Both the position numbers and the translations under genes were made by a program. Below the pieces are notes generated by a model. It made no database searches. It was not told where the DNA came from and saw only the letters and a program-made list of their open reading frames with translations. From an uncultured Anaerovibrio sp. (GTDB lineage Bacteria > Bacillota > Negativicutes > Selenomonadales > Selenomonadaceae), in assembly GCF_902786545.1 (NCBI RefSeq), contig NZ_CADACU010000001.1: a DNA stretch of 64,000 nt; one strand, 5' to 3'. The first letter of the stretch is position 1. Each line of letters starts with the position of its first letter. Shown piece by piece: positions 9,072 through 30,405 of this stretch.

Positions 9072-10064
9072 TCATCCTTTGCGCCCGTGATAAAGGCACC
9101 ATGGCTCCTCGGCCATATAATCACCATCGTTGTAAAAGGCCGCTCTGGCCCGGCAGCCACCGCAGGCCCCCTTGTATTCACAGGCACCGCAGCCATCCTT
9201 ATAGTCCAAAGTACGCAAGGTCTTCAGTACTTCATTATTCTGCCATATTTCATCAAATGGTGTTTTTCGCACATCCCCTAATTCCATATTGAGATAAGCG
9301 CAAGGCTGTACCTTGCCCCGGGGGCTAATAATACAGTAAGCCGTTCCCGCCAGACAGCCCCGCCGGAATCGGGTTTTTATCCCCATCTGGTCCGCAATCC
9401 GCATAAACTGCGGAGCACAGGTTGGCTTCAATTCAATGTCCACCTGCTGTTGTTTTTTCATAATCCGGGTAAGGGTATCCTCGTACTGCTCGGCCCGTAA
9501 TGACTCTGCTTCAATGGACTTAGCCCGGCCGGTTGGTACCAAAAAGAAAAAATGATGGGCCACCGCACCCTTTTCCACTGCAAAATCCGTAATAGACTCC
9601 AGCTCAGCGTTATTCCAATCCATTACCGTAGTATGAATCTGGAATGGCAAACCGGCCTTCCGACAATTATCCATGCCCCGGACGGCACCTTCCCATGCCC
9701 CTGGAAATTTACGGAATTCATTGTGCTTAGCCTTATCCAGGGAATCGAGAGAAATCCCCATTCCCATAGCACCGGCCGCCTTTAATTTTTCCGCCATTTC
9801 CATAGTAATCAATGTCCCGTTGGTGCCAAATACCGGCCGCAGTCCTAACTTAGTGGCATAAGCCACCAGCTCCACAATATCCGGTCGCATTAGAGGCTCA
9901 CCACCGGAAAAAATCATTATTTTGAATCTGGCCCTGGCTATCTGCTCCAATAGAGTTTTGGCCTCCTGGGTGGACAGCTCCTCTTCAGCCTTGCAGCCGG
10001 CCTCACGGTAGCAGTGATCACAATACATATTGCAGGCATTGGTTACATTCCATGAAACTATCAT
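9072..10064 (-). CDS. Radical SAM/SPASM enzyme, NirJ2/AhbD-like
   Basis: CNMYCDHCY radical SAM cluster motif near the N-terminus and a C-terminal Cys-rich CGACEYKGACGGCRARA SPASM motif. 1-nt stop/start overlap with the upstream paralog. Confidence 0.6.
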   Translation of the reverse strand: MIVSWNVTNACNMYCDHCYREAGCKAEEELSTQEAKTLLEQIARARFKIMIFSGGEPLMRPDIVELVAYATKLGLRPVFGTNGTLITMEMAEKLKAAGAMGMGISLDSLDKAKHNEFRKFPGAWEGAVRGMDNCRKAGLPFQIHTTVMDWNNAELESITDFAVEKGAVAHHFFFLVPTGRAKSIEAESLRAEQYEDTLTRIMKKQQQVDIELKPTCAPQFMRIADQMGIKTRFRRGCLAGTAYCIISPRGKVQPCAYLNMELGDVRKTPFDEIWQNNEVLKTLRTLDYKDGCGACEYKGACGGCRARAAFYNDGDYMAEEPWCLYHGRKG

Positions 10065-11257
10065 CAGCCCTTCAAACCTCCTGAAATGCCGATTTCCTCA
10101 TCTGTTAAATAACATGATGGATCTGACTCCCAAAAATCACCGGTACGGGCTTCCGCTCTGGTCCGGAAATTGCCATTACAATTGTCCAGATACTTGCACT
10201 TGCTGCACCGTCCCTTTAACAGGCTCTTACGGTCCTTCAGCCCGGCCATAATTGGGTGGCTGGTATCCTGCCATATCTCACTGAACTTTCTTTCCCTAAT
10301 ATTACCAAAGGTATGGTGCTGGGTAAACTGATCCGGATGAACATAGCCAAACGGATCCACCTCGCCAAAGGCAATACCTGACCGATTGCCTCCGTTAAGG
10401 GATATGTATTTCTTTATCTGCTCGGCCAGCTGGGTATCACCAGCGGATACAGCCTTTAAATACATATATACACCATCACAGTGATTATCCACGGTGAGAA
10501 TTTCCTTCTCCAGCCCCCGATCCTCAAAATCCTTGGTCCGGCGAATAATGGTATCCATAGCCTGGCGGGACTCTTCCGGTGTCACATCCTCATCCATCAT
10601 ATGATTGCCCCGGCCGGAATAAACCAGATGATAAAAACATACCCGGTTAATATTTTCCCGCTCAATAAAATCAAAAATATTATCCAGCTCCTGAATATTG
10701 TGATGGTTAATAGTAAACCGCAAGCCCACTCGCTGTCCTACCGCCACACAGTTTTGAATGCCGGCCATGGCTTTTTCATAGGCCCCTTCCTGTCCCCGAA
10801 ATTTATCATTTACATCCTTTAAACCATCCAGGGAAATCCCAACATAGCCTACGCCAATATCCTTTATCCGCTGGGCTACTTCTTTTGTAATAAGGGTTCC
10901 ATTGGTGGACAGGGTTGGCCTTACACCCTTTCTCTGGGCATACTCTGCCAACTCAAAAAAATCAGGCCTAATCAGCGGTTCACCACCGGAAAACAACAAA
11001 ACCGGCACCCTGAAATCAGCTAAATCATCAATAAACCGCTTGGCTTCATCAGTAGTCAGTTCATCCTGATATTTTTTACTGTCAGAATTCATATAACAAT
11101 GACGACACTTCAAATTACAGGTTTTGGTGGAATTCCACACCACCACCGGTCCCATACCTTCACCGGCCCCGTTTTTTGCACTGCGGGCTCCCTTGGTATA
11201 TCTCAATGAGTCACCATAATACTCTCTGGCAAATAATAACTTTGTAACACTTATCAT
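10064..11257 (-). CDS. Radical SAM/SPASM enzyme, NirJ1/AhbC-like
   Basis: CNLKCRHCY motif, an N-terminal LLFAREYYGDSLRY segment recalled from the NirJ/AhbC family, and a C-terminal CSKCKYLDNC motif. Confidence 0.6.
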   Translation of the reverse strand: MISVTKLLFAREYYGDSLRYTKGARSAKNGAGEGMGPVVVWNSTKTCNLKCRHCYMNSDSKKYQDELTTDEAKRFIDDLADFRVPVLLFSGGEPLIRPDFFELAEYAQRKGVRPTLSTNGTLITKEVAQRIKDIGVGYVGISLDGLKDVNDKFRGQEGAYEKAMAGIQNCVAVGQRVGLRFTINHHNIQELDNIFDFIERENINRVCFYHLVYSGRGNHMMDEDVTPEESRQAMDTIIRRTKDFEDRGLEKEILTVDNHCDGVYMYLKAVSAGDTQLAEQIKKYISLNGGNRSGIAFGEVDPFGYVHPDQFTQHHTFGNIRERKFSEIWQDTSHPIMAGLKDRKSLLKGRCSKCKYLDNCNGNFRTRAEARTGDFWESDPSCYLTDEEIGISGGLKG

Positions 11258-11287
11258 TATGTATCCCCTAAATATATATGTCCAGCC

Positions 11288-11908
11288 CTAATTGCTTATC
11301 CCGGCAATTATCAGCTTCAATTTCATTTCTATATTTTTTTCAAACGGTATATCTATATGACTATAGGCCGCCGCCTGAAACATTGAATGAAACATTTCGG
11401 AAATAATTTCCGCCGTAACATCCTGTCTGAACTCACCCTTGGCCTGGCCTTCTTTAATCAGTCTCAAAAAGACCCCCATAAACTCCGGTGGCTGCAATCC
11501 CGCCGGTCGGCTGCTCCGTCCTTTGGCATGAGTCATGGCCCCGGTGAACAGCAATGGCAACAAATACCGGTTTTTCCCCACCAGCCGGGCGGTAAACAGA
11601 ACCATTTCCGCAAGAATGACCTTGCTGCTGGTATTGTTGGCCATTATAGTCCGCAGCTCGTCGGACAAGGTACCGGTAAACCGGTTAAGTAGGCTGAGCA
11701 GCACATCCTCCTTAGAGGAAAAATAGTTATAAAAGGTACCCAGTCCCATTCCCGCCGTATTCATAATATCAGCAATGGAAGTATCCATAAAGCCCTTTTC
11801 TGAAAACAACACCACTGCCGTATCCAGTATCTCATTACGAGCTTTTATTTTCTTTTGCTCCCGCCGGCCCAGTTTTTCTTGTTCCACACTGCCACCTGCC
11901 TTCTTCAT
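11288..11908 (-). CDS. TetR/AcrR family transcriptional regulator
   Basis: N-terminal HTH (ILDTAVVLFSEKGFMDTSIADIMNTAGMGLGTFYNYFSSKEDV) and about 200 aa length. Confidence 0.85.
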   Translation of the reverse strand: MKKAGGSVEQEKLGRREQKKIKARNEILDTAVVLFSEKGFMDTSIADIMNTAGMGLGTFYNYFSSKEDVLLSLLNRFTGTLSDELRTIMANNTSSKVILAEMVLFTARLVGKNRYLLPLLFTGAMTHAKGRSSRPAGLQPPEFMGVFLRLIKEGQAKGEFRQDVTAEIISEMFHSMFQAAAYSHIDIPFEKNIEMKLKLIIAGISN

Positions 11909-11938
11909 AAATTATTTTTATTCACAGGCCTTCAATAT

Positions 11939-11953
11939 ATGAATGCCATTCAT
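11939..11953. promoter_or_regulatory. Palindromic candidate TetR operator ATGAATG-N-CATTCAT
   Basis: 7-bp inverted arms between the predicted -10 and the tetR start codon. Confidence 0.45.
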
Positions 11954-11968
11954 CTTTACAGCCACTAA

Positions 11969-11997
11969 AGTATAACATAAAAGACCAGTGACTGCAA
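11969..11997 (-). promoter_or_regulatory. Sigma-70-type promoter TTGCAG-N17-TATACT for the tetR-led operon
   Basis: Hexamers and 17-nt spacing read on the minus strand. Confidence 0.5.
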
Positions 11998-12001
11998 AAG
12001 C

Positions 12002-12033
12002 AAAAATAAAAAGGCGAAGCAAACGCTTCGCCT
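12002..12033 (-). terminator. Rho-independent terminator after tRNA-Arg
   Basis: AGGCGAAGC / GCTTCGCCT stem with a 4-nt loop, followed on the minus strand by TTTTATTTTT. Confidence 0.75.
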
Positions 12034-12044
12034 AAAATCTCAAA

Positions 12045-12122
12045 TGGTGACCCAGGAGGGACTCGAACCCCCGACCCCTTGATTCGTAGTCAAGTACTCT
12101 AATCCAGCTGAGCTACTGAGTC
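12045..12122 (-). tRNA. tRNA-Arg (anticodon ACG), CCA encoded
   Basis: Manual cloverleaf. Acceptor GACTCAG/CTGGGTC, D-arm GCTC..GAGT, anticodon stem CTTGA/TCAAG with loop CTACGAA, T-arm GGGGG-TTCGAGT-CCCTC, discriminator A plus CCA. Close to the E. coli tRNA-Arg(ACG) sequence from memory. Confidence 0.9.
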
Positions 12123-12151
12123 ATTGACTGGTCTAAATAACCAGCAGACAT

Positions 12152-12180
12152 ATTCTACCTCTATATAATCTTTTTGTCAA
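12152..12180 (-). promoter_or_regulatory. Near-consensus promoter TTGACA-N17-TAGAAT driving tRNA-Arg
   Basis: Hexamers and spacing read directly, about 30 nt upstream of the tRNA 5' end. Confidence 0.65.
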
Positions 12181-12215
12181 ATAATTTCTTTAATAACGCA
12201 ACTGGGCTTCGAAAA

Positions 12216-12350
12216 GCCAGATGGAGGTCTATAAGGGGACATCAGTTTCCCTTGGCACTTGGCGAGCACAAACCTCAGTGCCGTGCGAGCTTAGTACCAT
12301 TAGGGAAACTGTCTCGAGCGCGAGCGTGCCCCGTTAGACCTGTATCTGGC
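12216..12350. repeat. 135-nt imperfect palindromic structured element (MITE-like repeat or structured RNA), copy 1
   Basis: Terminal arms GCCAGATGGAGGTCTATAAGGGGAC and GTGCCCCGTTAGACCTGTATCTGGC pair. Inner helices are CAGTTTCCC/GGGAAACTG and GGCACT/AGTGCC, with a side hairpin CTCGAGCGCGAG. No ORF. Confidence 0.6.
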
Positions 12351-12374
12351 TAAAACAGATATGGGATAAAATGG

Positions 12375-12734
12375 TTACAGTTCAGCCTTCTTCACTCCAT
12401 CGGGACAAATGGCCTCACTCAGCTTCAAAAACTCCTTATCAGTTCCGCTACAGGAAAAAATCTTCTGCTGATCTGCCTGAACTGGCTGATTTTCCTCTAC
12501 CCGACTGATATCCAGCTGTATCCGGTTATGCTTATCCTGCCGAAAGGAGTACTCCCCCCGGGTGCTAAGCCATTCATTGACCATCTCCAGATTGATAAAG
12601 GAAGCTTTTTTGTTGTACTCCTTATATTCTTCCGTGGCCGCTGCCGCTGCCTGCTTCATATCGGAAAAGCTGCCCAGAAGATACACATCCAAACTAGTTT
12701 CTGTAGTAATCAGTTTTGTAACAATATATGCCAT
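12375..12734 (-). CDS. Hypothetical protein (119 aa), translationally coupled to the yqeB-family gene
   Basis: TGATG stop/start overlap at 12734. No motif recognised. Confidence 0.5.
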   Translation of the reverse strand: MAYIVTKLITTETSLDVYLLGSFSDMKQAAAAATEEYKEYNKKASFINLEMVNEWLSTRGEYSFRQDKHNRIQLDISRVEENQPVQADQQKIFSCSGTDKEFLKLSEAICPDGVKKAEL

Positions 12735-13597
12735 CAGCTATCTTTCCTCATCTTTTTCCATTTATACCATGGCAGCCGCGATTTCTTCGGCTGCTGGTTT
12801 TCCCAGGCAATTATTGCCTCCAGCACTGAGCCGGACACACAGCGTGACTTGGCGGAAATACTCATACAATTGGCTGGTTTGGTACTTGGATCAATCTCAG
12901 CAATTTTCAATCCTGTCCGCACCGGGCAGTCATCGTGGAGCATCCCCCGCAGCACTCCGGCAATCGGTGTACGAATTTCCAGCACATGACCGCCTTCCAC
13001 ATGAAGCTTGGCAATAAGCTCATTTTTATTGATTACATAGGCGGTCGGATGTCCAGCCTCCAAATAACCGTCACAAGGGGAGTTTATGGAATGGGAGGCC
13101 TTCATCAGGGCTCTGGCTTCCACTGTTTCCTTCTCCGGCATCGCTATACCATCATAAATTATCCGACCCAGATTGTGCCCACGGGAGGTTTCAATGACAC
13201 AGCTCACATCCTTGCCGGCTATAAAACCGGGACCTATGCCAATGGTTAATGGAGCCATATCCTTATGGGTTCCCATATTTCGCTTGGCATAAATGGCATC
13301 CACCAGCACATTCGGCCTCAGCTTGCCCAAGCACTTGGCCTCTGGGTCAACCATGATAACAATATTCCCTTCCTTCAACAGCCGTTCCGCCTGCTTCAAA
13401 TCATCCGCCCGATAACAGGTAGTCCGTTCCACACTGGCCTCTCCGTCGTATATTGCCTCCGAAAAAACGATATTTCTCCGGATAGCCGAAGGAAATTGTC
13501 GCTCCAGCATTAAAACCTTATAACCAGTATTATATAAACGATGGGCGATACCTGTGGCCAGCTCACCGCCCCCACGAATAACCACCAGTTTCTTCAT
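12734..13597 (-). CDS. YqeB/EF2563-family protein (selenium-dependent molybdenum hydroxylase accessory family)
   Basis: N-terminal Rossmann-like MKKLVVIRGGGELATGIAHRL and a size of about 287 aa match my recollection of the short YqeB family. Confidence 0.55.
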   Translation of the reverse strand: MKKLVVIRGGGELATGIAHRLYNTGYKVLMLERQFPSAIRRNIVFSEAIYDGEASVERTTCYRADDLKQAERLLKEGNIVIMVDPEAKCLGKLRPNVLVDAIYAKRNMGTHKDMAPLTIGIGPGFIAGKDVSCVIETSRGHNLGRIIYDGIAMPEKETVEARALMKASHSINSPCDGYLEAGHPTAYVINKNELIAKLHVEGGHVLEIRTPIAGVLRGMLHDDCPVRTGLKIAEIDPSTKPANCMSISAKSRCVSGSVLEAIIAWENQQPKKSRLPWYKWKKMRKDS

Positions 13598-13614
13598 TGC
13601 TCATACACGCCTTT

Positions 13615-14277
13615 CTAGCTGTCCTCATAAATGCGGACCCGGAGTTTTAATCCCCGTTCATCACATATCTTCTGGCATTTATCGATTTCCTGCTGGTTTT
13701 CAACTTTTTCTACTACCGTCATAACCACATTAGAAATATATTCCTTGCAATTCTGGGCAAAATCCAGCATGGCATCAAATGACTTCAGCCCGTACTTCGC
13801 CCGGGTGAGTTCCAAGTACCGCTGGGCATTGGATGCATTTAAGCTTATGGAAATAGTATCCAAAATTCCTCCGGCAAAATCACCGGCAGTAGACCGGCCA
13901 TGAGCCAAATCAGACAATCCATTCGTGTTTAGCCGTGTCTTAACCTCAGGGTGGACTGCCTTAATATACTTTAACAGCTCCACCACTGCGTCCAGACGCA
14001 TGGTTGGCTCACCAAATCCGCAAAAAACTACTTCAGATACATATTCCCATGGCAAATTGTCCAACTCAGCCTTCACCTGTTCCACTGCAGGCTCAGTCTT
14101 GAGCCACAGGCTGCTTTCCTCAGCCATTTCCTTCATATGGCGCAAACAAAAGGTGCAAGCACAATTACATTGATTAGTCAGATTGACATATACGCCCCGT
14201 TTACCTTCGGGCTGTTCCCTCAGACTGTCTTTTATGGGCAAATATCGTCCCCCACTATGAGTTGCATATACTATCAT
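13615..14277 (-). CDS. Radical SAM protein (small, TatD-associated-type)
   Basis: YVNLTNQCNCACTFC CxxxCxxC motif. 220 aa. Confidence 0.7.
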   Translation of the reverse strand: MIVYATHSGGRYLPIKDSLREQPEGKRGVYVNLTNQCNCACTFCLRHMKEMAEESSLWLKTEPAVEQVKAELDNLPWEYVSEVVFCGFGEPTMRLDAVVELLKYIKAVHPEVKTRLNTNGLSDLAHGRSTAGDFAGGILDTISISLNASNAQRYLELTRAKYGLKSFDAMLDFAQNCKEYISNVVMTVVEKVENQQEIDKCQKICDERGLKLRVRIYEDS

Positions 14278-19998: not shown

Positions 19999-20571
19999 AT
20001 GAAGAAACAATCTATACGAATCCTATTATTGGTTTTAACCCTTGTTTGCGCCATGGCCTCGGTTGCTACAGCCGCAGCCTTGCCCCGGGTGGCCTTGATT
20101 TACACCAATAACGCCAACACTACCTACGATACAGAACTGGACAGCTGTGTACTGGATAATCTCAACAAGACCCTATCCCAGCATTTCGAAGTTGTTAAAA
20201 ATGACACAGTGGTGCAAAAACTGACAGATATGGGTATGACCGATCTTTCCATGGCAGAACGCCGCGATATCCTAGATGCCGTTGCCGGCGAGGAATGTAC
20301 CTATGTTATTTGTCTTTCCCTGGAGCCGTTTCAACGCAAGGAGAAAATCACCTTCTTCACCCAGGGGATTGAAATGATTGCCACCGTTCCGTGCAAAATT
20401 ATCGATGTTAAAAACGACCGTTATATCTATAACGGTAAGTTCGTAGAAAAGCAATCGGACAGCACCTGGATTGGCTCTGTTGGCAACAAGTCGGTGGCGC
20501 TCCAGGCCCTCCAGAAAGTAAACAAGGGCCTCAACAAAATTTTAAATGAAAAAATGCTTGTGGCTAAATAA
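19999..20571 (+). CDS. Secreted hypothetical protein (190 aa)
   Basis: AGGAGGA RBS, signal peptide MKKQSIRILLLVLTLVCAMASVATA, terminator downstream. Confidence 0.6.
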   Translation: MKKQSIRILLLVLTLVCAMASVATAAALPRVALIYTNNANTTYDTELDSCVLDNLNKTLSQHFEVVKNDTVVQKLTDMGMTDLSMAERRDILDAVAGEECTYVICLSLEPFQRKEKITFFTQGIEMIATVPCKIIDVKNDRYIYNGKFVEKQSDSTWIGSVGNKSVALQALQKVNKGLNKILNEKMLVAK

Positions 20572-20679: not shown

Positions 20680-22182
20680 TTATGGAATCCGACGGTCTTC
20701 CCCGTCGGTTATTACTTTCTTCCAACCATAGTACTGGGCATACATTATGTTATGGCTGCCCTCCGGCCGTGGCTCCAAATCCGAGCCCCAGGCCAAAATA
20801 TCCGTATTCCAGGTAACACAAGTCCATACTTCACAAACTTCATCCGCCAGCGGCCATACATCAATCTGATGCACTACCACCAGCTCCTTTTCCCTATTGG
20901 CATTTATATAGTCGATGCGGCTCATCCATTGCTGACGCACATCCCACTCCACCTTGCAGGTGAAAGCTGCCGTAACCAGTAACAAGGCCATCCCAATCAC
21001 TGTAACAGTCTGCCATATAGGCCTGCATTTCTGCCAAACGGCTTGATTGTTCAATAGCTCCTTCAAGGCAGACAGAGAGGCAATTATCACCGCCACGGTG
21101 GAAAAAAAGCCCGCCCGGGCTGGTGCTACTGGAACAAACAGCATAATAATCATAACGGATATGGCTCCCCCCAGCATAGCAGCCTGAAATCTGGTGGTCC
21201 GGTTCCAGCGTTGCCCAACCGGAAGCTGCCAGATATAAAAGCCAATAAGCCCCAACAAAGGAATCCATAACTTGGTGACAGCCAAAAAACACTCAAAGAA
21301 GTTTATTTGAAACATTAACGGGGTCCAATACATATCAGCTGGGAGACCCGGATTATATTCATACAATCTCTGCAGCTCTAACCGGACCATTTCCCCCGGA
21401 GCCTGGGTCAGCATCAATCCCCCAATGCACAGGAATAGGAATCCTACTATCATCCATAACTGCAGCTGCCTCTGCTGGCGAAAATAAAGCAGGGCCAATA
21501 AAGCAATAAACCCTGTGGCCGCGGCGCCAGTTTCCACGGACCAGCCGGCACACAAGCCGCTTATCGCCATAAGAGGAACTGCCCAGCGAGGTGGTTTTTG
21601 CCAAAAATCAGGCTGCCAATATTTTGCCGCAAAGGGCATCAGAAACAGAAATTCCAACAGCCCCATCCATAAAAATACACAGCTGCCACACATCCATAAA
21701 GTGGTCAAAAAAGGATCCGGCAGCAGGAACCAAAAACTCAGCACAAGCCATAGCATATAAGTACGGTTCATGGACCGCAGGGAAAGTCCGGTGCCCAGGC
21801 GGAAGGCCAGTAACATCAGTCCGCCAAATACCAGTGTATTAAACACATTAAATAGTTCCTTCCCCTGCCAGGCAAACAACTGGGTCAGCCCAATTCCCAG
21901 AATCCGTCCCCCCCAGGTAAAATAATGTGACCACTGACTGATGATGATATCACCAAAGGAGGTAATACGCTCTCTTGGCCCTACTCCATCCAGCAGATTG
22001 CCCCGATCGGCTCCATCCCAGATAAAAGCGTAAGGAATATCATCTGACACCATAGGCAGCATAAAATTTCTCACTAAAAACAATCCTATAAAAAGCAAAA
22101 ATATCATCTGCCAAGAAAACAGTTTGTTGATTGATTGTTCGCCATTTTTCACTAGTTGTCTGTCCCCCCGTATTTCTCCCAA
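20680..22182 (-). CDS. GT-C-like polytopic membrane protein, paralog 2 (putative glycosyltransferase)
   Basis: About 11-13 TM segments. SDDIPYAF acidic motif directly after TM1. The shared WxHYFxWGGR block and overall colinearity with the upstream paralog are visible by eye. Confidence 0.55.
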   Translation of the reverse strand: MGEIRGDRQLVKNGEQSINKLFSWQMIFLLFIGLFLVRNFMLPMVSDDIPYAFIWDGADRGNLLDGVGPRERITSFGDIIISQWSHYFTWGGRILGIGLTQLFAWQGKELFNVFNTLVFGGLMLLAFRLGTGLSLRSMNRTYMLWLVLSFWFLLPDPFLTTLWMCGSCVFLWMGLLEFLFLMPFAAKYWQPDFWQKPPRWAVPLMAISGLCAGWSVETGAAATGFIALLALLYFRQQRQLQLWMIVGFLFLCIGGLMLTQAPGEMVRLELQRLYEYNPGLPADMYWTPLMFQINFFECFLAVTKLWIPLLGLIGFYIWQLPVGQRWNRTTRFQAAMLGGAISVMIIMLFVPVAPARAGFFSTVAVIIASLSALKELLNNQAVWQKCRPIWQTVTVIGMALLLVTAAFTCKVEWDVRQQWMSRIDYINANREKELVVVHQIDVWPLADEVCEVWTCVTWNTDILAWGSDLEPRPEGSHNIMYAQYYGWKKVITDGEDRRIP

Positions 22183-23684
22183 TCGAACTCCCGGTCAATC
22201 CGGATGCTTTTTAAACCATAGTATTGGGCAAATATATTGGAACGGTTATCCGTCGGCTTATATTCAAGGTCTGCCCCATAAATCAGGTGATAGATGGTCA
22301 GGGAACGCGGTCCTAACCATTCATCCAGATTGTCGGGTATATATAAGGCAGAAACCACAATTTCATCATCCTGACGATGCTCATTCACATAAACCTTCCG
22401 ATCCTGCCACTGCTGGGCGTAAGAATTTTCTACATACAAGGCCCCCACAAAGGATAAAACCACATAAACAAAGGCTATAATGCCGGTTCCCAGTGCCAGT
22501 CTCCGCCAAAGCAAGGAATTCTGCAATACATCCCGCAAATAAGGAACACATTCCTTTAAGGCCGCCACCGAAGCTATGGTCAAAAACATAGTGGAGTGAA
22601 AGCCGGTATGGACCTTAAATTCCGGGGAAAACATCATCAGAACCAGTATTTCCAACCCAGCCAGAAGGAAGGCTATTATATAGGATTTATCACCACGCTT
22701 TTTTTCTCTCTGCATAAAATATAGCAGCAAAGGTAAAAACAAAAAGGCTTCCCATAAAATAACCGGCAAAAAACCTTCCGTGAAATTTCGGTAAAACATA
22801 GCAGGGGTAAAGAGCTGTTGGGCAGGCAATACATAATCCGCCTCGTACTCCAGCATATATTCCTCCCGCATTATGGAGCCCGGTGCCAGAATCAACAGCA
22901 TACAGCCAATAACAGCACCGCCAACTCCGGCCAGCATCCATGGACTTAATTTTCCCTCCCGATGGCGGATGGCTATCGAAGCCATTCCCAACAGAGTTAT
23001 GGTAACTAGGCTACCACCTTCCTGGGACCAGCCAGCCAGCAATCCCAACAGTGCCATCAGCAGCCATGCCCACTTGGGCCAATTCCTGCCAAACTCCCTG
23101 TTTCGATACGCCAGGGCATAGGGCAACAATAAACCACATTCCCACAAGCCAGTCCACATATATACACAGGTCCCCGTCATCCAAATCATGGTGGTTATGT
23201 AGTCCAATACACCAAAATTTAGTCCAATAATCACCCACAAAAAACATCCCTTGGCTTTTGCCGGTGATATTATTTTTCCCATAGCCAACCAATATAGAAC
23301 CAGCATCAACAGCAAATACACCAGGGTGTTGCACAGAGCAAAACCAGCTTTTTCCTGCCAGGCAAAAAATTGAATAATCAGCATGGAAAATGTACGACCG
23401 CCCCAAGAAAAATAATGGTTCCACTGGGATATGACAATATCCCCAAGGCTTTCAAGCCGTTGCCGTGGTCCGATGTCATCCAATAAATTCCCGCCGTGCT
23501 CCGAATTCCAGATAAAGGCATAGGCATAGTCATCACCACTCATGGGCATTAGCTGACTTCGCCAGAAAAATATCAGCCCAAAAATAAGCAATATGGCCTG
23601 CCATGGCAATTTATTCCATATTTTCTCTATACCACTTATCATATATAAGCACCTCAACCCACAAATAGAAAAGCTGCATTTCAT
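22152..23684 (-). CDS. GT-C-like polytopic membrane protein, paralog 1 (putative glycosyltransferase)
   Basis: SGDDYAYAF motif after TM1 and a QWNHYFSWGGR block. ATGA overlap with the RND stop; an alternative start is the ATG at 23642. Confidence 0.55.
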   Translation of the reverse strand: MKCSFSICGLRCLYMISGIEKIWNKLPWQAILLIFGLIFFWRSQLMPMSGDDYAYAFIWNSEHGGNLLDDIGPRQRLESLGDIVISQWNHYFSWGGRTFSMLIIQFFAWQEKAGFALCNTLVYLLLMLVLYWLAMGKIISPAKAKGCFLWVIIGLNFGVLDYITTMIWMTGTCVYMWTGLWECGLLLPYALAYRNREFGRNWPKWAWLLMALLGLLAGWSQEGGSLVTITLLGMASIAIRHREGKLSPWMLAGVGGAVIGCMLLILAPGSIMREEYMLEYEADYVLPAQQLFTPAMFYRNFTEGFLPVILWEAFLFLPLLLYFMQREKKRGDKSYIIAFLLAGLEILVLMMFSPEFKVHTGFHSTMFLTIASVAALKECVPYLRDVLQNSLLWRRLALGTGIIAFVYVVLSFVGALYVENSYAQQWQDRKVYVNEHRQDDEIVVSALYIPDNLDEWLGPRSLTIYHLIYGADLEYKPTDNRSNIFAQYYGLKSIRIDREFDWEKYGGTDN

Positions 23685-26600
23685 TCAGCAGCTTTTCCTT
23701 GGCGATTTCCCTCATATGTCCGGCTAATCAGTATGAACAGCAGTGGAATAACAAATACACCCAAAACAGTACCAACGGTCATGCCGCTTACTACAGCGAC
23801 TCCCATACTGCACCGGGATACACTGCCGGCCCCATCAGCAAAGGCTAATGGCAGGCAGCCAACTACAAAGGCAAAAGAGGTCATAATTATCGGTCTAAAC
23901 CGCAATTTAGCCGCAACCATTACCGCCCTTAACGGAGTCATTCCATTATCCACCCGTTCTTTGGCATACTCCACAATTAGTATGGCATTTTTAACTGTCA
24001 GCCCTACCATCAAAAGGATACCAATCTGAACGAATATACTTACCGGGATATCCGTTAACACCATTCCCAGCAATGCGCCACCAATACCCAATGGCACCGA
24101 CAGCAACACGGCCACCGGCAAGCTCCAGGACTCATACAGCGCCACCAGACACAGGAAAACAAATAATATACCCAAAGCCAAAATGTACACCACATCCTGC
24201 TGAGCCCGTTTTTCCTGCTGACTGTCCTTGGACCAGGCCAAACGATAACCCGTCCCTACTACCTTATTGGCAGCCTCTTCAATGGCCTCCATTGCCTCGC
24301 CGGAAGAATATCCATCAGCAGCGGTAACTGTCACCTGAAAACTCCGCACACCGTTATACCGGCTGATATAGGCCGGACCAACCCCCTTGTTGGATTGTAC
24401 CAGACTATTTATCGGTACCATCACTCCGTCTGCACTGCGGACATACAAATACCGCAAATCCGTTTCAGTGGCCCTATAGCCTTGATCAGCCTGCAATACC
24501 GTCTTGTACACCTGACCGTAGCGATTAAAATCATTTACTTCCTGACCACCTAGAAGCACTTCCAGGGTAGAATATATATCCGCCAGGTTCACATTCAGCT
24601 CCTTGGCCCGGTCCTCATTGACGGTAAAATCAATATAAGGCGTATTTATAGAAAAGCCAATATCCACCTCGTCCAGCTCTTCCCGACTTTTTGCTTCTCG
24701 ATACAGGGCCAAGGCCAGGTCACTAAGCTCCTGATCCGTATGACCGGTAATATCCATTACTTGCAGAGAAATGTCCCGGGAAATGAACGGGGCCACCACC
24801 AGCCCATGTGCCTCTGGTATAGACTGTTGGACTGCTTCATTGGCCGATGCAACAATATCTTCTGTATTAGCCCCCAACTCCCTGCGTTCGTCCCAATCCT
24901 TCATGGCCACAAACATTATTCCTGCACTGGACTTGGTAGTATCACTCAATAGATCCGCCCCAGTAACACCTACAATATTGGCCAAAGCATCATTTTGCAG
25001 CAAGGCTTCGGTCAGACGGTTGAGGGAATCAGCCGTACGGTTCATAGAGGTTCCTTCCGGCAGATTAACCCCAACCATATAGTACCCCTGATCCTCGCCA
25101 GGGATAAATTCAGTTGGCAACAGCCGATAAACAACGACAATTAACGCCGTCAGTACCGCCAATCCGGTCAATATCATACCGGTGCGTCGGATACACCAGC
25201 CCAAACCCTTTAAATATCTTTGCTGACAAGACCGGAAAAAAGACTGAAATCGACTTAACAAACGGTTATTATCTTGCTGTACACTCAATGATGGCAAAAT
25301 AAGCACACAAAGTGCCGGTGTAAGGGACAACGCCACTATTGCCGAGATACCCATGGATACGGCTATAGTCAAGGCAAACTGACGATACAAGATTCCCGTC
25401 ATTCCCTCAAAAAAAGCCACCGGCAAAAATACAGCCAACAAAACAAAAGCTATGGCTATAACCGGCTTTTGCACAATGCCCAAAGCCGCCATGGTAGCTT
25501 TCTTGATATCCTGTTCCCCCCGTTCCTGCTCCTGCATAACGCTTTCAACCACTACGATAGCATCATCTACCACCAGACCAATGGCCAAAATCAAGGCAAA
25601 CAGTGTAAGAAGATTTAGAGTAAAGCCCAGTAGCCTAAAGGCAATAAAGGTGGCTATAAGCGATACCGGTATAGTCAAAATGGAAATAATTGTCGCTCCA
25701 CGGTTCTGCAAAAATATATACATGATTATCATAACCATGATAATCGCTTCAATAAAGGTATACGATACCTCATGCATGGATTCAGAAATATACTTCGTCC
25801 GGTCTACTACTATTTTTAATTCCATATCCGGCGGGAAAGACTGCTTCGCCGTGTCCAAAATTTCCCGCACTTTAGTGATAGACTCCAACGCATTGGCGTT
25901 ATCCGCCAGAGAAATGCCATAGGCCGCGGCCGGCTTGCCATCAACGAAGGACAGATAACGGGTATCCTTGGCGCCTTCACTTATCCGCGCCACATCGCTC
26001 AAGCGGGTAATAGCGCCATTTTCCGACTTTAACACTATTTTCGCAAAATCTTCCGGGGTCTGCTTAGTGTTCATTACCCGGCCAATCAACTGCTTTTCCT
26101 GAATAGACGGCGAAGGCGATTTCCCCAAAGAGCCTACTGCTGGTCGGCTGTTTTGCTCCTTAATAGCGCCAGTAACATCGTTTACAGCCAATCCCCGTAC
26201 AGCCAACTTATCCGGCTGCAGCCAGATACGCATAGCGTAATCCTCCGAGTATTCGTCCACACTGCCTACACCGGATACCCGCTTTATCTGATCCAGAAAA
26301 TACGCTTTGGCGTAATTTTGCAGATAAACACTGTCATAGGTTCCATTAGGTGAACACAAAGCCATAACAAAAATCGTGTCCTTAGTACTGCGGCTAACCT
26401 GAATCCCAGATTCCTGAACCTCTTGAGGCAATCGTGAAAGAATCGTCTGCAGGCGATTCTGAACATTCACCGTAGCAATATCGCCAGCAATACCATAATC
26501 AAAGGTGATGCTCAACTGATAGCTGCCGGAAGAATCCGAATAAGAGCTGAGGTTATCTATCCCCTCTATGCCTCTTATTTCATCTTCAATAATTTTGGCC

Positions 26601-26782
26601 ACAGTATCCTGCAACACTTGGGCATCCGCCCCGGGATACTCAGTGGTAACATTGACCGTAGGCTGATTCATATTAGGATATTCCTCTACAGGCAGCTGCA
26701 CTGCCGCAAGTATTCCCAGCAATGTCAGCAAAATAGCCCCTACTACAGCCTGTAGCGGATGTTTAATAAAATATTGAGCCAA
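23681..26782 (-). CDS. RND efflux permease (AcrB/HAE1-like, 1033 aa)
   Basis: Typical N-terminus FIKHPLQAVVGAILLTLLGILAAVQLPVEEYP and a 12-TM, two-large-loop layout. TTG start 7 nt after a GGGGGA RBS. Confidence 0.85.
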   Translation of the reverse strand: MAQYFIKHPLQAVVGAILLTLLGILAAVQLPVEEYPNMNQPTVNVTTEYPGADAQVLQDTVAKIIEDEIRGIEGIDNLSSYSDSSGSYQLSITFDYGIAGDIATVNVQNRLQTILSRLPQEVQESGIQVSRSTKDTIFVMALCSPNGTYDSVYLQNYAKAYFLDQIKRVSGVGSVDEYSEDYAMRIWLQPDKLAVRGLAVNDVTGAIKEQNSRPAVGSLGKSPSPSIQEKQLIGRVMNTKQTPEDFAKIVLKSENGAITRLSDVARISEGAKDTRYLSFVDGKPAAAYGISLADNANALESITKVREILDTAKQSFPPDMELKIVVDRTKYISESMHEVSYTFIEAIIMVMIIMYIFLQNRGATIISILTIPVSLIATFIAFRLLGFTLNLLTLFALILAIGLVVDDAIVVVESVMQEQERGEQDIKKATMAALGIVQKPVIAIAFVLLAVFLPVAFFEGMTGILYRQFALTIAVSMGISAIVALSLTPALCVLILPSLSVQQDNNRLLSRFQSFFRSCQQRYLKGLGWCIRRTGMILTGLAVLTALIVVVYRLLPTEFIPGEDQGYYMVGVNLPEGTSMNRTADSLNRLTEALLQNDALANIVGVTGADLLSDTTKSSAGIMFVAMKDWDERRELGANTEDIVASANEAVQQSIPEAHGLVVAPFISRDISLQVMDITGHTDQELSDLALALYREAKSREELDEVDIGFSINTPYIDFTVNEDRAKELNVNLADIYSTLEVLLGGQEVNDFNRYGQVYKTVLQADQGYRATETDLRYLYVRSADGVMVPINSLVQSNKGVGPAYISRYNGVRSFQVTVTAADGYSSGEAMEAIEEAANKVVGTGYRLAWSKDSQQEKRAQQDVVYILALGILFVFLCLVALYESWSLPVAVLLSVPLGIGGALLGMVLTDIPVSIFVQIGILLMVGLTVKNAILIVEYAKERVDNGMTPLRAVMVAAKLRFRPIIMTSFAFVVGCLPLAFADGAGSVSRCSMGVAVVSGMTVGTVLGVFVIPLLFILISRTYEGNRQGKAAE

Positions 26783-26851: not shown

Positions 26852-28588
26852 TCAATCAATCTCCAACATAAATCTGTTTTCATCCCCGGCCGACAGATAC
26901 CGTCGCTTCGGCAAATCAGCCGTAATCGACTCGATAAAGTGCTCCCGCCAGGAAAACTCCCCCTGCTGTACTACAGCAATAATATCATAAGGCGGGGCAT
27001 TATCCCGCACAGACATGATTATTGCCTCAGCTGGGTCACTGCTCAAAAGAAAGGATATTTCCAATTGAAAAACATTCCCCTCAGCCCGTTCCACCGCATG
27101 CATTCCTATCTCTTCCACCAGCAATCGCAGGCGTATTATTTTGGCCGCAGATACTCCCAGTTTCTGCAGGTCCTGGGCTACCTTGACAGACAGATCCATC
27201 ACTTCATCCATAACGCTATTGATATCGTAGGACAGCTGGCGATTCGTCCGTGCCTTGTCCATCAACAGCAGATTGCGGCCATGATGTCGGAGCTTGACCA
27301 CAGCCAGGTTAATACCGTAAGCTGCCACAAAGGCACCACCGATTCCAAGCCACATGCCTTCTATACCATACCACTCCCCCAGTAGCATACCTGCCGTGGG
27401 CAGGACCAGCAACAGCATGGTTTTTACCAGCAATCCCTGACTCCAGTGCTTTATATAAATATAATAATTGCTGTACATAAGGGTAATACCCAAAAACACC
27501 GTAAAAATCAAAAAACATCGCAGGGACCGGGTTGCCTCCACTGCAATAGATTTCTCAGCAACACCAAATATATATGGCAAAATTGGTGCACCTATAATTC
27601 CTACAACGGATACCAGCAGGCTAATGGCAATGGTTGCGGCAATGCCCAGCCGCATGGTCTTTTTAATGCACAGAAGATTTCCCTCCGCGTGATACTGACA
27701 AACCATTGGTTGCAGGCAATCCACCACCCCGGTATACAGGGCAATCACCAGCACCAAAACATTGGTGATTACCGTTACAACAATAATATGGCTTTCACCC
27801 CAACGGGCAATCACATAGGTGGACAGTATCACCGGAAGTACAGATAAGTAAAGGGTATCTATCGAATGATAAAAGCTATAGGTAAGTCCCCGAAATATTT
27901 GGCGAAAATCCCACCACCAGCTGAACTTCAGACGGCTTTTATCTGAAAGCAAAAAACGGCATTGCATAAAGCAAGAGATCAAAGTACCAATAACGGTAGC
28001 CAGACCAATCCCCATAACTCCCAGCTCATGGCACAGTACAACATCCAAGATAACATTAACCACCATGGCAACTACCGATGCCATAGCACAAATCTGTTCT
28101 TCTCCCTCTTGTACCAAAAATGTATATATAAAAATATTCAGAAACACAACCGGTGGAAGCCATTTTATGGCACTGTAATAAGCCAGAGCATAGGCCATCA
28201 GCTCCGGCGATATTTTCCAAAAGGCCAATATTTTTTCCTGAAAAGTCCCGAGGAGCACAACTAGACCTATCCCTAGCCCCAGAGATAATATTATGCCCTG
28301 GCTGAAAAATTGGCTCACTGCAATCCGATCGTCCTGCCCCTGAGCATAGGCAGCCATCATTCCCAGACCGTCAGCTATCATATAACTGATAAAAAACAAC
28401 ATGGGTAACAATGGAAATACCAGGGACATTGCGGCTACAGCCTCACCGCAAATCATCTGCCCTGCCACAACATTATCAATCAATACAAGTACATATGATA
28501 TCGTCATGGCCACCATTGACGCCATAAAAACTGACCGAAAACGGGTCGATACAACCGTTTTTTTCCCCAACTCAGTCAAAAATTTCAT
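26852..28588 (-). CDS. MATE-family transporter with about 144-aa C-terminal cytoplasmic extension
   Basis: 12 TM with MATE-like N-terminal pattern (IDNVVAGQ..GEAVAAMSLVFPL). The extra soluble tail spans aa 435-578. ATGA overlap with the upstream gene. Confidence 0.75.
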   Translation of the reverse strand: MKFLTELGKKTVVSTRFRSVFMASMVAMTISYVLVLIDNVVAGQMICGEAVAAMSLVFPLLPMLFFISYMIADGLGMMAAYAQGQDDRIAVSQFFSQGIILSLGLGIGLVVLLGTFQEKILAFWKISPELMAYALAYYSAIKWLPPVVFLNIFIYTFLVQEGEEQICAMASVVAMVVNVILDVVLCHELGVMGIGLATVIGTLISCFMQCRFLLSDKSRLKFSWWWDFRQIFRGLTYSFYHSIDTLYLSVLPVILSTYVIARWGESHIIVVTVITNVLVLVIALYTGVVDCLQPMVCQYHAEGNLLCIKKTMRLGIAATIAISLLVSVVGIIGAPILPYIFGVAEKSIAVEATRSLRCFLIFTVFLGITLMYSNYYIYIKHWSQGLLVKTMLLLVLPTAGMLLGEWYGIEGMWLGIGGAFVAAYGINLAVVKLRHHGRNLLLMDKARTNRQLSYDINSVMDEVMDLSVKVAQDLQKLGVSAAKIIRLRLLVEEIGMHAVERAEGNVFQLEISFLLSSDPAEAIIMSVRDNAPPYDIIAVVQQGEFSWREHFIESITADLPKRRYLSAGDENRFMLEID

Positions 28589-30186
28589 GCAAGCAGCTCC
28601 AATACTGATTTATCCGCTTCCTGTAGCCCCTTCAGCATTTCATCCACCAACTCGGACAAATAGCTCATTTTCCCTTCTGAATACCGACTGGCATCATATT
28701 CTATCTTCATACGGTAAGTACCATCGGCTTCAGCCACCACATGAATATCCAAGGAATTTTCCACCGCTGAAGCTTTGTTTTGCGGCAACTCCTGCAACAG
28801 GGCCATAGTACCACAAAGCGGAAAATCTCCACCGGCATTCCCCATCAAATTGCCTTTTTGTAAAATAAAGGTTGCACAGTCATCCTCCAGTCCTTCAGTA
28901 TACACCGTATCAAGACTGTCACGATACTGAAAGCCCTCGGCCACCTTTTTATCCAAATCCTCAATCAATTCCTGTACAGAAATATCGTTATGAAAATCAT
29001 ACCGTATTGGCATCTGAACAAGCATTAGGCCCATCAGTCGCATTTCCGCCCTGGTGGTACGGCCATTATGTACATAACTCATAATAGCCTCCCGACTGCC
29101 GGCCGACTTGGCTATAGCCAACATCACCGCAGCCATCAAAAAGGTATGCTCCGGATATTTTGTTTCCGCAAAAAAACTCTTCTGGATATTCTGCAGTTGT
29201 CTGAAATGGGCGTTAAATTTCCAGGACCCTTCATGTTTATCACTAGGTGGCAAATGCTTTTTTTCATCAAAGCCCTTCAGCATTTCCCGCCAATAGGCTT
29301 CCCCTACTGCATTCCTCGGCCGTCCGCATTCCTGCAATATATAGTCAGCATAGCTAATATCATTCTGCTTTATCGGTCTTCCCTTATAACGGAGATCCAG
29401 CTCACGGAAAAATAGCATAGCCGTAGCCACACCATCCATTATTACATGATAAAAATCCAAATACATATATTTCCCGGATGGGGTAATAATCAGATATATA
29501 CGAAATAAAGGCCGGTCAATAATTTGATATGGGCGCTTCAATTCCAGCTTTCGCTTTTCAAATTCATCCTCAGACAATGACTCAATCCGCACCTTGGACA
29601 AACTTCCATCAAAACGCTGGCATATTTCTCCGGTCTCCGGGTGGAATAATATCCGGCAACGGAAAATGTCGTGCGCCGACAGAGTGTCATTTATAGCCCC
29701 AGCCAGGCGTTCCATATCCAGGGAATCATCCAGTTTAGCCAGTCCGCCTTCATTCATCATAGTTGAGTTTGCCTTTTGAAAATGGGTATCCATCATCCAA
29801 CGCTGAATTGCCCGAAGAGGATAAAAGCCCGTCATACTGTCTGACACGGCACCATCTCCCACTTCCGCACTGGTATTGACAATCTCCACAAAGTGATTAA
29901 ATCCGGTCATATCAAATACATCTGCCACACTGGACTGCGGATTGACTACCCGAAATTTTATATTTTCCCTATCAGCATGTTTTTTGGCCATAAGAATAGC
30001 ACGAAGGCCCGCCGATGACATATATTCCAGGCGTGAAAAATCCACATCCAGCCTGGATACCTTCGTAGCAAATTCTTCAATACTGTGATTAAAGGCATCT
30101 ACCGTTGTGGCATCAAGCCGTCCATCCAGTTCCAGCACCAATACCCCGGCCGATATATCCTTCCTCATATTTATTTTAAGACTCAT
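28585..30186 (-). CDS. STAS domain fused to an NRPS-type condensation / HHxxxDG acyltransferase domain
   Basis: The N-terminal 100 aa have the anti-sigma-antagonist pattern (LELDGRLDATT ... DFSRLEYMSSAGLRAIL ... VFDMTGF). Then come YPLRAIQRWMM (C1-like) and FYHVIMDG (C3 motif, nt 29431-29451). Start set to the ATG at 30186, 9-10 nt after GGAAGGG. Confidence 0.75.
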   Translation of the reverse strand: MSLKINMRKDISAGVLVLELDGRLDATTVDAFNHSIEEFATKVSRLDVDFSRLEYMSSAGLRAILMAKKHADRENIKFRVVNPQSSVADVFDMTGFNHFVEIVNTSAEVGDGAVSDSMTGFYPLRAIQRWMMDTHFQKANSTMMNEGGLAKLDDSLDMERLAGAINDTLSAHDIFRCRILFHPETGEICQRFDGSLSKVRIESLSEDEFEKRKLELKRPYQIIDRPLFRIYLIITPSGKYMYLDFYHVIMDGVATAMLFFRELDLRYKGRPIKQNDISYADYILQECGRPRNAVGEAYWREMLKGFDEKKHLPPSDKHEGSWKFNAHFRQLQNIQKSFFAETKYPEHTFLMAAVMLAIAKSAGSREAIMSYVHNGRTTRAEMRLMGLMLVQMPIRYDFHNDISVQELIEDLDKKVAEGFQYRDSLDTVYTEGLEDDCATFILQKGNLMGNAGGDFPLCGTMALLQELPQNKASAVENSLDIHVVAEADGTYRMKIEYDASRYSEGKMSYLSELVDEMLKGLQEADKSVLELLA

Positions 30187-30335
30187 ATAAAGCATCCCTT
30201 CCCATGTATAAGGTAACTCACTATTTCTTATCTCTAATAAAATTTTACCAAAAAAAGAAAAATTTCTCAGTAGAATTTAAAATTATTTCTCTTATTATCC
30301 TTAAATTTAGGAACAAATGCAAGGAAAAGTATTTC

Positions 30336-30371
30336 AAAAAAATGTACGGCCCGGGCTTATGGCCCAGGCCG
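30336..30371 (-). terminator. Rho-independent terminator of the atp operon
   Basis: CGGCCUGGGCC / GCCCGGGCCG stem containing a U-G wobble that pairs only on the minus strand, followed by the T-rich tail TACATTTTTTT. Confidence 0.75.
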
Positions 30372-30405
30372 TCTGATTGTACAATAGAAAATTTAATTAT
30401 GTTTT

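Follow-up and report, generated by a model that had tools for sequence, protein, structure and literature searches.

A MATE transporter of an uncultured Anaerovibrio with a predicted RsbW/SpoIIAB-like pseudokinase tail, encoded beside a STAS-condensation protein

We analyzed a stretch of 64,000 nucleotides (nt) of DNA (hereafter, the window) from an uncultured Anaerovibrio sp., a rumen bacterium of the family Selenomonadaceae (NCBI RefSeq assembly GCF_902786545.1, contig NZ_CADACU010000001.1). The subject of the analysis is a gene for a MATE family transporter with a long C-terminal extension, together with the gene directly upstream of it, which encodes a protein combining a STAS domain with a condensation domain (STAS-C). 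The principal elements are the following, with the supporting methods in parentheses.

26852..28588, minus strand: MATE transporter gene, 578 amino acids (aa) (open reading frame (ORF); Pfam MatE; TIGR00797; hydropathy scan)
26852..27271, minus strand: putative RsbW/SpoIIAB-like pseudokinase domain of the transporter, aa 440-578 plus stop, ~140 aa (family profile; PF13581; PDB sequence match; AlphaFold2; Foldseek)
28585..30195, minus strand: STAS and condensation gene, 536 aa, upstream of the MATE gene and overlapping it by a 4-nt ATGA (Pfam)

The first ~430 residues of the transporter make up the membrane part, which matches Pfam MatE (PF01554) in two repeats (5e-24; 85.2 bits against a cut-off of 24.9 bits); the score for TIGR00797 is 99.5 bits, under the 147-bit cut-off of that family. 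The hydropathy scan revealed 12 peaks, with a transmembrane (TM) span of aa ~19-431 and the last peak at aa 413-431, and no hydrophobic stretch beyond aa 440. Lys and Arg are enriched at the N-terminus and in the central loop, and the C-terminus should therefore be cytoplasmic. A preliminary description of this DNA, made by eye from the sequence, had placed a soluble tail after TM12 and an ATGA overlap at the junction with the upstream gene. Both are borne out: positions 26852-27286 encode aa 435-578 plus the stop codon, with the quoted peptide present, and the junction reads gcATGAaa at 28588-28585, so placed that the STAS-C and MATE genes are predicted to be translationally coupled. In the NCBI annotation, the transporter is labeled only as 'MATE family efflux transporter', and a 534-aa STAS-C enzyme as 'anti-sigma factor antagonist'.

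A 3-sequence profile, run with full HMMER (E<=1e-3) against 1.84 billion cluster representatives (50% identity), delineated a MATE-tail family of 66 cluster representatives, most of them 560-578 aa long and matching at about residues 435-575. Proteins built as MATE plus tail thus form a conserved family. Word-indexed protein searches had returned first 3 close relatives, all of them MATE fusions and one of them a fragment with the Joint Genome Institute (JGI) name 'anti-sigma regulatory factor (Ser/Thr protein kinase)', and later 16 homologs, mostly fragments. An alignment of 55 full-length tails (A2) was used for the Pfam comparison, the PDB profile search, AlphaFold2 modeling and all column counts given below. 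In this set, 23 of the 55 tails match PF13581 (HATPase_c_2) at E<=1, with a best value of 8.7e-7, and no other Pfam family is matched by more than two tails. The A2 profile, compared with the PDB, has RsbW (6m36) as its best match (E=0.008), and a tail-only hidden Markov model (HMM) scores 13-26 bits against intact kinases encoded in the same loci. The comparison of the family with a single SpoIIAB sequence by hhalign was uninformative, giving a probability of 12% with only the G1 region aligned.

The AlphaFold2 model of the tail derived from the 55 sequences has a predicted local distance difference test (pLDDT) value of 90.3 and a predicted template modeling (pTM) score of 0.84, and replaced an earlier, poor model based on 3 sequences (pLDDT 55.6). 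The topology is beta-alpha-alpha-beta-beta-alpha-alpha-beta-beta, and both the model and the Foldseek matches correspond to the Bergerat alpha/beta sandwich fold. The top 18 Foldseek matches in the PDB are all RsbW, SpoIIAB or Mycobacterium tuberculosis UsfX (E 1.9e-6 to 3.4e-4, TM-scores 0.53-0.73), followed by the kinase domain of Rv1364c (3ke6), SiaB (SiaB-SiaC complex, 6kko) and the CA domains of histidine kinases. The similarity to a SpoIIAB/RsbW-type GHKL module that had been suggested by eye was thus recovered by Pfam, PDB and structure comparisons, including the Foldseek search proposed as a check of it. The assignment of the tail as a homolog of the RsbW/SpoIIAB anti-sigma-factor serine kinases is well supported by the family alignment and the predicted fold.

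For the tail of the window protein taken alone, homology to PF13581 is supported and curated Pfam membership is not, the match (E=0.005, 17.2 bits) lying below the gathering cut-off of 27.4 bits. This sub-threshold score, along with a phmmer search of the PDB that returned only noise, would be expected if the likeness to kinases were fortuitous and the tail an unrelated or disordered extension. We consider that explanation ruled out by the PF13581 matches at the family level, the confident model and the clean Foldseek ranking.

The upstream protein begins with a STAS domain, as had been noted (Pfam STAS, aa 12-111, 1.5e-18), followed by a free-standing condensation domain of the nonribosomal peptide synthetase (NRPS) type (PF00668, aa 122-524, 5.9e-39, 134.5 bits). 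Its matches in the PDB are NRPS condensation (C) domains, the SpoIIAA-like protein 4hyl and RsfB (8ih8_A). The catalytic HHxxxDG motif reads YHVIMDG in this protein, and each of the 24 associated C domains that include the region carries [HY]HxxxDG; the condensation enzyme is therefore probably active. The phospho-acceptor loop of the STAS domain was located as follows.

30007..30030, minus strand: STAS phospho-acceptor loop L-E-Y58-M-S-S61-A-G (translation; alignment of 36 STAS sequences with SpoIIAA)

Here Y58-M-S-S61-A-G-L aligns with F-M-D-S58-S-G-L of SpoIIAA, and the counterpart in RsbV is Y53-M-D-S56-T-G. Among the associated STAS sequences, the Tyr is present in 36/36 and the phosphorylatable Ser in 35/36. 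Between the STAS domain of STAS-C and the free STAS proteins of distant loci, sequence identity is 25-35%.

In the complex of RsbV with RsbW as solved by crystallography, Ser48 and Glu49 of RsbW bond with Tyr53 and the phospho-acceptor Ser56 of RsbV (PMC7340262). In the profile alignment, E53 and E54 of the tail (tail numbering; E492 and E493 of the window protein) align with RsbW Ser48 and Glu49. This helix-2 pair, with E53 present in 54/55 and E54 in 48/55 tails, is the best-conserved feature of the tail and would face the STAS serine. Furthermore, the tail matches UsfX (8ih8 chains C and D) and the neighboring STAS domain matches RsfB (8ih8 chain A), that is, both partners of one solved complex. 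By analogy with these complexes, we infer that the STAS-binding face is preserved in the tail.

The nucleotide-binding motifs were compared in a MAFFT alignment of the tails with the intact RsbW-like kinases from the same loci, to which SpoIIAB was added. Three remnants of these motifs can be delineated in the window protein.

27098..27115, minus strand: remnant N-box helix E492-E493-I-G-M496-H497 (translation; alignment to RsbW and intact kinases)
26996..27007, minus strand: remnant G1 box R528-D529-N-A531 (translation; family consensus R-D-x-G)
26945..26953, minus strand: former G2 box, now S546-W-R548 (translation; MAFFT alignment)

The intact kinases retain E-x-x-x-N, D-x-G and G-G-L-G. 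In the tails, the Glu of the N-box (E-x-x-x-N, which coordinates Mg-ATP) is retained and the Asn, replaced by His497 in the window protein, is present in only 2/55. The preliminary description was right about the loss of this Asn but named Met as the replacing residue, whereas the HMM and MAFFT alignments put Met496 one position earlier; the conclusion is unchanged. Its statement that the glycines of D-x-G-x-G are absent applies to the window tail, where the G1 box reads D-N-A-P-P, but not to the family: the G1 columns hold R in 51, D in 52 and G in 47 of the 55 tails, D-x-G being kept in 47/55 relatives, and it is the second Gly that the family has not retained. At G2, the GGLG of the kinases aligns with S-x-R (SSLR) in the tails (S in 48/55, R in 43/55), and the ATP lid ahead of it is ~9 aa shorter in the tails than in the intact kinases. 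By these substitutions, the tails have lost the residues for Mg-ATP binding, pointing to catalytic degeneration across the family and, presumably, to loss of binding. Since it falls below the Pfam cut-off and departs from the catalytic motifs that define the anti-sigma kinases, we do not class the tail as a functional member of that group.

The same motifs bear on the alternative that the tail still binds ATP and works as a serine kinase through an atypical active site, phosphorylating Ser61 of STAS-C and thus acting as a regulator rather than as a passive dock. Such a kinase would account for the retention of the catalytic-base Glu and, in most relatives, of D-x-G, as well as for the conservation of the STAS phospho-acceptor Ser although no kinase is encoded nearby. 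Moreover, four metagenome loci (L042, L044, L054 and L055) encode a sensor-PP2C and a STAS protein but not the RsbW-like kinase domain with which the phosphatase is fused in sister loci, leaving the MATE tail as the only kinase-like module. Nevertheless, we regard an active kinase as quite improbable, given the near-absence of the Mg-coordinating Asn, the shortened lid, the replacement of both G2 glycines and, in the window protein, the additional loss of the G1 Gly, when the intact kinase paralogs of the same loci keep all these motifs.

In the window, the MATE and STAS-C genes are accompanied by three further genes on the same strand and by two candidate signals ahead of STAS-C.

23681..26782, minus strand: RND pump gene, downstream of the MATE gene (Pfam)
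22152..23684, minus strand: DUF6056 membrane protein gene (Pfam)
20680..22182, minus strand: DUF6056 membrane protein gene (Pfam)
30346-30372, minus strand: strong terminator-like hairpin after atpC (consensus scan only)
30242-30270, minus strand: promoter-like site with an extended -10, ahead of the STAS-C start (consensus scan only)

Given the terminator-like hairpin and the promoter-like site in front of STAS-C, the five genes (STAS-C, MATE-tail, RND and two DUF6056) look like one operon; an Rfam search detected no riboswitch near it. The synteny of the RND and the two DUF6056 genes is maintained across the Anaerovibrio and Selenomonas loci. The DUF6056 proteins are tandem, multi-TM paralogs of 510 and 500 aa, for which no sequence relative was found in the PDB, and no gene for a membrane-fusion protein adjoins the RND pump gene (window 20680-26782).

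A genome scan with an 8-sequence subset of the tails yielded 16 loci, every one of them from Anaerovibrio or Selenomonas. In 15 of 18 Selenomonadaceae loci (13 from the genome scan, the metagenome contig L001 and the window), the next gene upstream of MATE-tail is STAS-C, so that a cognate STAS domain is encoded beside the kinase-like module. These pairs keep the 4-nt overlap, usually together with the RND and two DUF6056 genes. One of the three loci that were not counted (L009) lies on a contig that ends inside the MATE gene, where the upstream side is unreadable; the other two are considered below. In Anaerovibrio lipolyticus LB2005, a dCache-HAMP-PP2C (SpoIIE) sensor phosphatase is encoded ~2 kb upstream of STAS-C (L010:2708-4963). 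A PD-(D/E)XK transposase-like gene separates this phosphatase gene from STAS-C, and neither the window nor any other Anaerovibrio locus has the phosphatase. In L001 (2808-4539), the MATE-tail ortholog appears as two called genes of 341 and 250 aa, with the break around aa 295-301, owing to either a frameshift or an assembly error.

A metagenome scan with a divergent subgroup of the tails produced 80 loci, the flanks of which were scanned in six frames with HMMs built from the hits themselves. The recurrent gene orders are MATE-tail, sensor-PP2C-RsbW-like kinase and STAS, or the same without the kinase domain; MATE-tail followed directly by STAS; PP2C followed by MATE-tail; and A-T-C (adenylation-thiolation-condensation) followed by MATE-tail. 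Pfam confirmed the arrangement in L034 (SpoIIE 2e-51, HATPase_c_2 5e-17, STAS 6e-17) as well as those in L094 and L100. Where at least 4 kb are available on each side of the MATE gene, parts of a partner-switching system are present in 9 of 13 loci, and either those or a condensation enzyme in 11 of 13. All matches to STAS (39/39), PP2C (33/33), kinase (16/16) and C domains (25/25) fall no more than 4 kb from the MATE gene, with none in the remaining 297 kb of flank. Greedy ORF calling on the high-GC metagenome contigs produced spurious antisense ORFs, due to which STAS is under-counted in the Pfam tally of neighbors; the six-frame HMM count is reliable.

Distant members of the family show similar neighborhoods. 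P0017 is preceded by a PP2C, then an intact HATPase_c_2 protein of 138 aa (2e-21) and then an A-T-C protein, and P0021 has a condensation plus cyclic nucleotide monophosphate (cNMP)-binding protein nearby, the combination that is also recorded for L021; around the remaining distant members inspected, which are on short contigs, nothing relevant was found. A-T-C enzymes are encoded beside the family in L020, L086, L087, L094, L096, L098 and L100. In L094 (1056-11575), a single-module A-T-C lies directly upstream of MATE-tail, with a HAMP-PP2C, an FGE-sulfatase-like gene, an MMPL-type pump and a LolA-like protein; in L100 (1496-8411), an A-T-C gene of the same kind and position occurs with an Orn/DAP/Arg decarboxylase and an aminotransferase. 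The gene sets of L094 and L100 hint at an exported acyl- or aminoacyl-amine product.

Thus, the suggestion in the preliminary description that the two proteins are a fossilised partner-switching pair holds with respect to the STAS link, both in the Selenomonadaceae loci and in the STAS, PP2C and kinase genes beside distant members, but not with respect to a one-off fossil, the family having 66 representatives. In other lineages, as far as gene neighborhoods indicate, MATE-tail appears to be wired to live partner-switching modules.

Since the nearest structural relatives of the tail (SpoIIAB, RsbW and UsfX) are all anti-sigma factors, the tail might also be a membrane-tethered anti-sigma factor that frees a sigma factor upon STAS binding and so links export to transcription. 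The neighborhoods make this very improbable. There is no sigma-70 domain among the 25 listed of 70 families matched by the neighbors in 12 dereplicated loci, or among the 25 listed of 50 families for the other genes of the window, and no sigma factor gene in the annotated loci L034, L094, L100 and L020.

The interpretation that we favor, with a probability of about 0.55, is that the tail is a pseudokinase receptor that docks a cognate STAS domain, in an ancestral switch that would tune export and in a Selenomonadaceae fusion that would dock the enzyme or gate through it. Under this scheme, the cytoplasmic tail, with its STAS-binding face intact, would be the docking site. In the presumably ancestral and still widespread layout, the STAS protein would be free-standing, and a neighboring sensor PP2C phosphatase, in many cases carrying an intact RsbW-like kinase as a fusion, would set its phosphorylation. 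Unphosphorylated STAS would move from the kinase to the tail of the transporter, and export would be tuned. In the Selenomonadaceae lineage, the STAS domain would have become fused to a stand-alone condensation (acyl- or peptidyl-transfer) enzyme encoded by the coupled upstream gene, and binding of STAS to the tail would hold this enzyme at the mouth of the exporter or let it gate the exporter. Docking would then, in conjunction with the RND pump and the two DUF6056 proteins of the operon, couple the synthesis and export of a product. For the enzyme-docking idea we argue only from gene context and interolog reasoning.

With odds that we put somewhat below even, a broader proposal can be made, namely, that MATE-tail represents a new output class of partner switching. 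A STAS protein under phosphorylation control would toggle between two partners, an active RsbW-like kinase and a pseudokinase decoy borne by the transporter, thereby gating export directly, and the STAS-condensation fusion of Selenomonadaceae would hard-wire the switch into a synthesis-export complex for an envelope component or a secreted metabolite.

Several observations weigh against STAS docking. The Pfam score of the window tail is below threshold, as reported above. The equivalent of SpoIIAB Arg20 (helix 1) is not conserved among the tails. No PP2C or kinase was found in the 64-kb window with the locally built HMMs. Two Selenomonadaceae loci depart from the usual order: in L003, atpC runs straight into MATE-tail without a STAS-C gene, and in L016, MATE-tail is followed by an overlapping condensation gene that has no STAS. 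No partner-switching gene was found in the available flanks of L018, L019, L021, L022, L066 and L072, and the metagenome loci as a whole are not phylogenetically independent. Finally, the STAS gene of the metagenome group always precedes a gene for an NCS2 permease (L034:11114-13124, L058, L065, L070 and L071), which could be the real partner, or a second one, of the metagenome STAS. This permease, of the NCS2/Xan_ur_permease type, is ~565 aa long with an N-terminal extension of ~100 aa, and is often followed by uracil phosphoribosyltransferase. A UraA-fold permease with STAS at its side is reminiscent of a SulP/SLC26 protein in split form.

Some of these observations would be expected if the tail were a regulatory or oligomerization domain independent of STAS, dimerizing via beta1/alpha1 or accommodating a small ligand where the nucleotide pocket used to be, with the adjacency to STAS-C reflecting only a shared pathway. 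The tail is retained with no STAS nearby in L003, L016, L018, L019, L022, L066 and L072; conserved polar residues at the former N-box, G1 and G2 positions (E53/54, E71, R89, D90, S107, R109, N132 and R133, tail numbering) suggest a conserved pocket; and RsbW dimerizes through beta1/alpha1 (PMC7340262). We nonetheless judge this explanation unlikely, because genes for STAS, PP2C and kinase recur next to family members in three or more unrelated arrangements and are missing from the rest of the flanks, and because the strongest conservation in the tail falls on the Glu pair predicted to face the STAS serine.

The tail resembles SpoIIAB, RsbW and UsfX in its equal size, Bergerat fold, helix-2 Glu, R/x-D-x-G after strand 3 and adjoining STAS gene. 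Unlike these proteins, it lacks the N-box Asn and the G2 glycines, has an ATP lid shorter by ~9 aa and forms the covalent C-terminal extension of a 12-TM MATE transporter, with no sigma factor in the neighborhood. Partner-switching systems that do not act on sigma factors include SiaABCD of Pseudomonas aeruginosa, HsbR/HsbA and BtrUVW. With these, and with SypE/SypA of Vibrio fischeri, the MATE-tail loci share the joint encoding of PP2C, RsbW-like kinase and STAS and a non-transcriptional target, whereas the target proposed here is a kinase-derived pseudokinase decoy fused to a transporter. By analogy, the MATE-tail system would work most like SiaABCD and SypE/SypA, with some resemblance to All4160 (see below). 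Like Rv1364c, the sensor-PP2C-RsbW-STAS fusion of M. tuberculosis, metagenome relatives encode sensor-PP2C-RsbW-like fusions beside MATE-tail; unlike MATE-tail, Rv1364c is a soluble regulator of sigma F and involves no transporter.

In the export of mycobacterial phthiocerol dimycocerosates (PDIM), the biosynthetic enzyme PpsE binds to the cytoplasmic domain of the exporter MmpL7. The docking concept is the same, but the domains are unrelated, and the dock proposed here is a recycled signaling pair. Literature searches recovered no description of a MATE/RsbW-like fusion or of such a partner-switching output. To our knowledge, the outputs of partner switching comprise sigma factors and a handful of enzymes, and we know of essentially nothing on post-translational control of MATE exporters. 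If correct, the scheme would link environmental sensing to efflux by a direct route, exemplify how a dead kinase can serve anew as a dock for proteins and offer a possible way to tether small NRPS-like enzymes to exporters in abundant rumen and gut anaerobes.

All4160 (HenR) of Anabaena PCC 7120 combines a STAS domain with a sugar transferase under the control of a PP2C and kinases, and its conserved phospho-Ser governs function (bioRxiv 10.64898/2026.04.08.717354). STAS-C of the window likewise has an N-terminal STAS domain on a biosynthetic enzyme and a conserved phospho-Ser, but the enzyme is of the NRPS condensation type, a transporter-borne predicted pseudokinase adjoins it, and the window yielded neither a phosphatase nor a kinase. 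Members of the STAS/anti-sigma module also regulate membrane transporters, as in SLC26/SulP, with a C-terminal STAS domain, and MlaB-MlaF (PMC8256260, PMC7367683). Compared with these, the polarity is reversed: the transporter, a MATE rather than a SulP or ABC protein, bears the kinase-like partner, and STAS resides on a separate protein.

Elsewhere in the window, the minus strand at 9072-14277 encodes three radical SAM proteins, two of them of the radical SAM/SPASM type, along with a TetR regulator and an unassigned ORF of 287 aa, and a tRNA gene lies at 12048-12122; this region could be a peptide-maturation cluster. An ORF of 190 aa at 19999-20571 on the plus strand has a signal-peptide-like N-terminus and no Pfam match, and is the sole plus-strand gene of its stretch, between the DUF6056 genes and a sigma-54 activator. 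Outside 20-34 kb, the Pfam tally of the window includes LpxC, LpxB, LpxK, LpxI, a Kdo transferase, two lipid A acyltransferases, LptF/G and an ABC exporter, a set of lipid A and lipopolysaccharide genes that fits the chromosome of a diderm Firmicute (Negativicutes).

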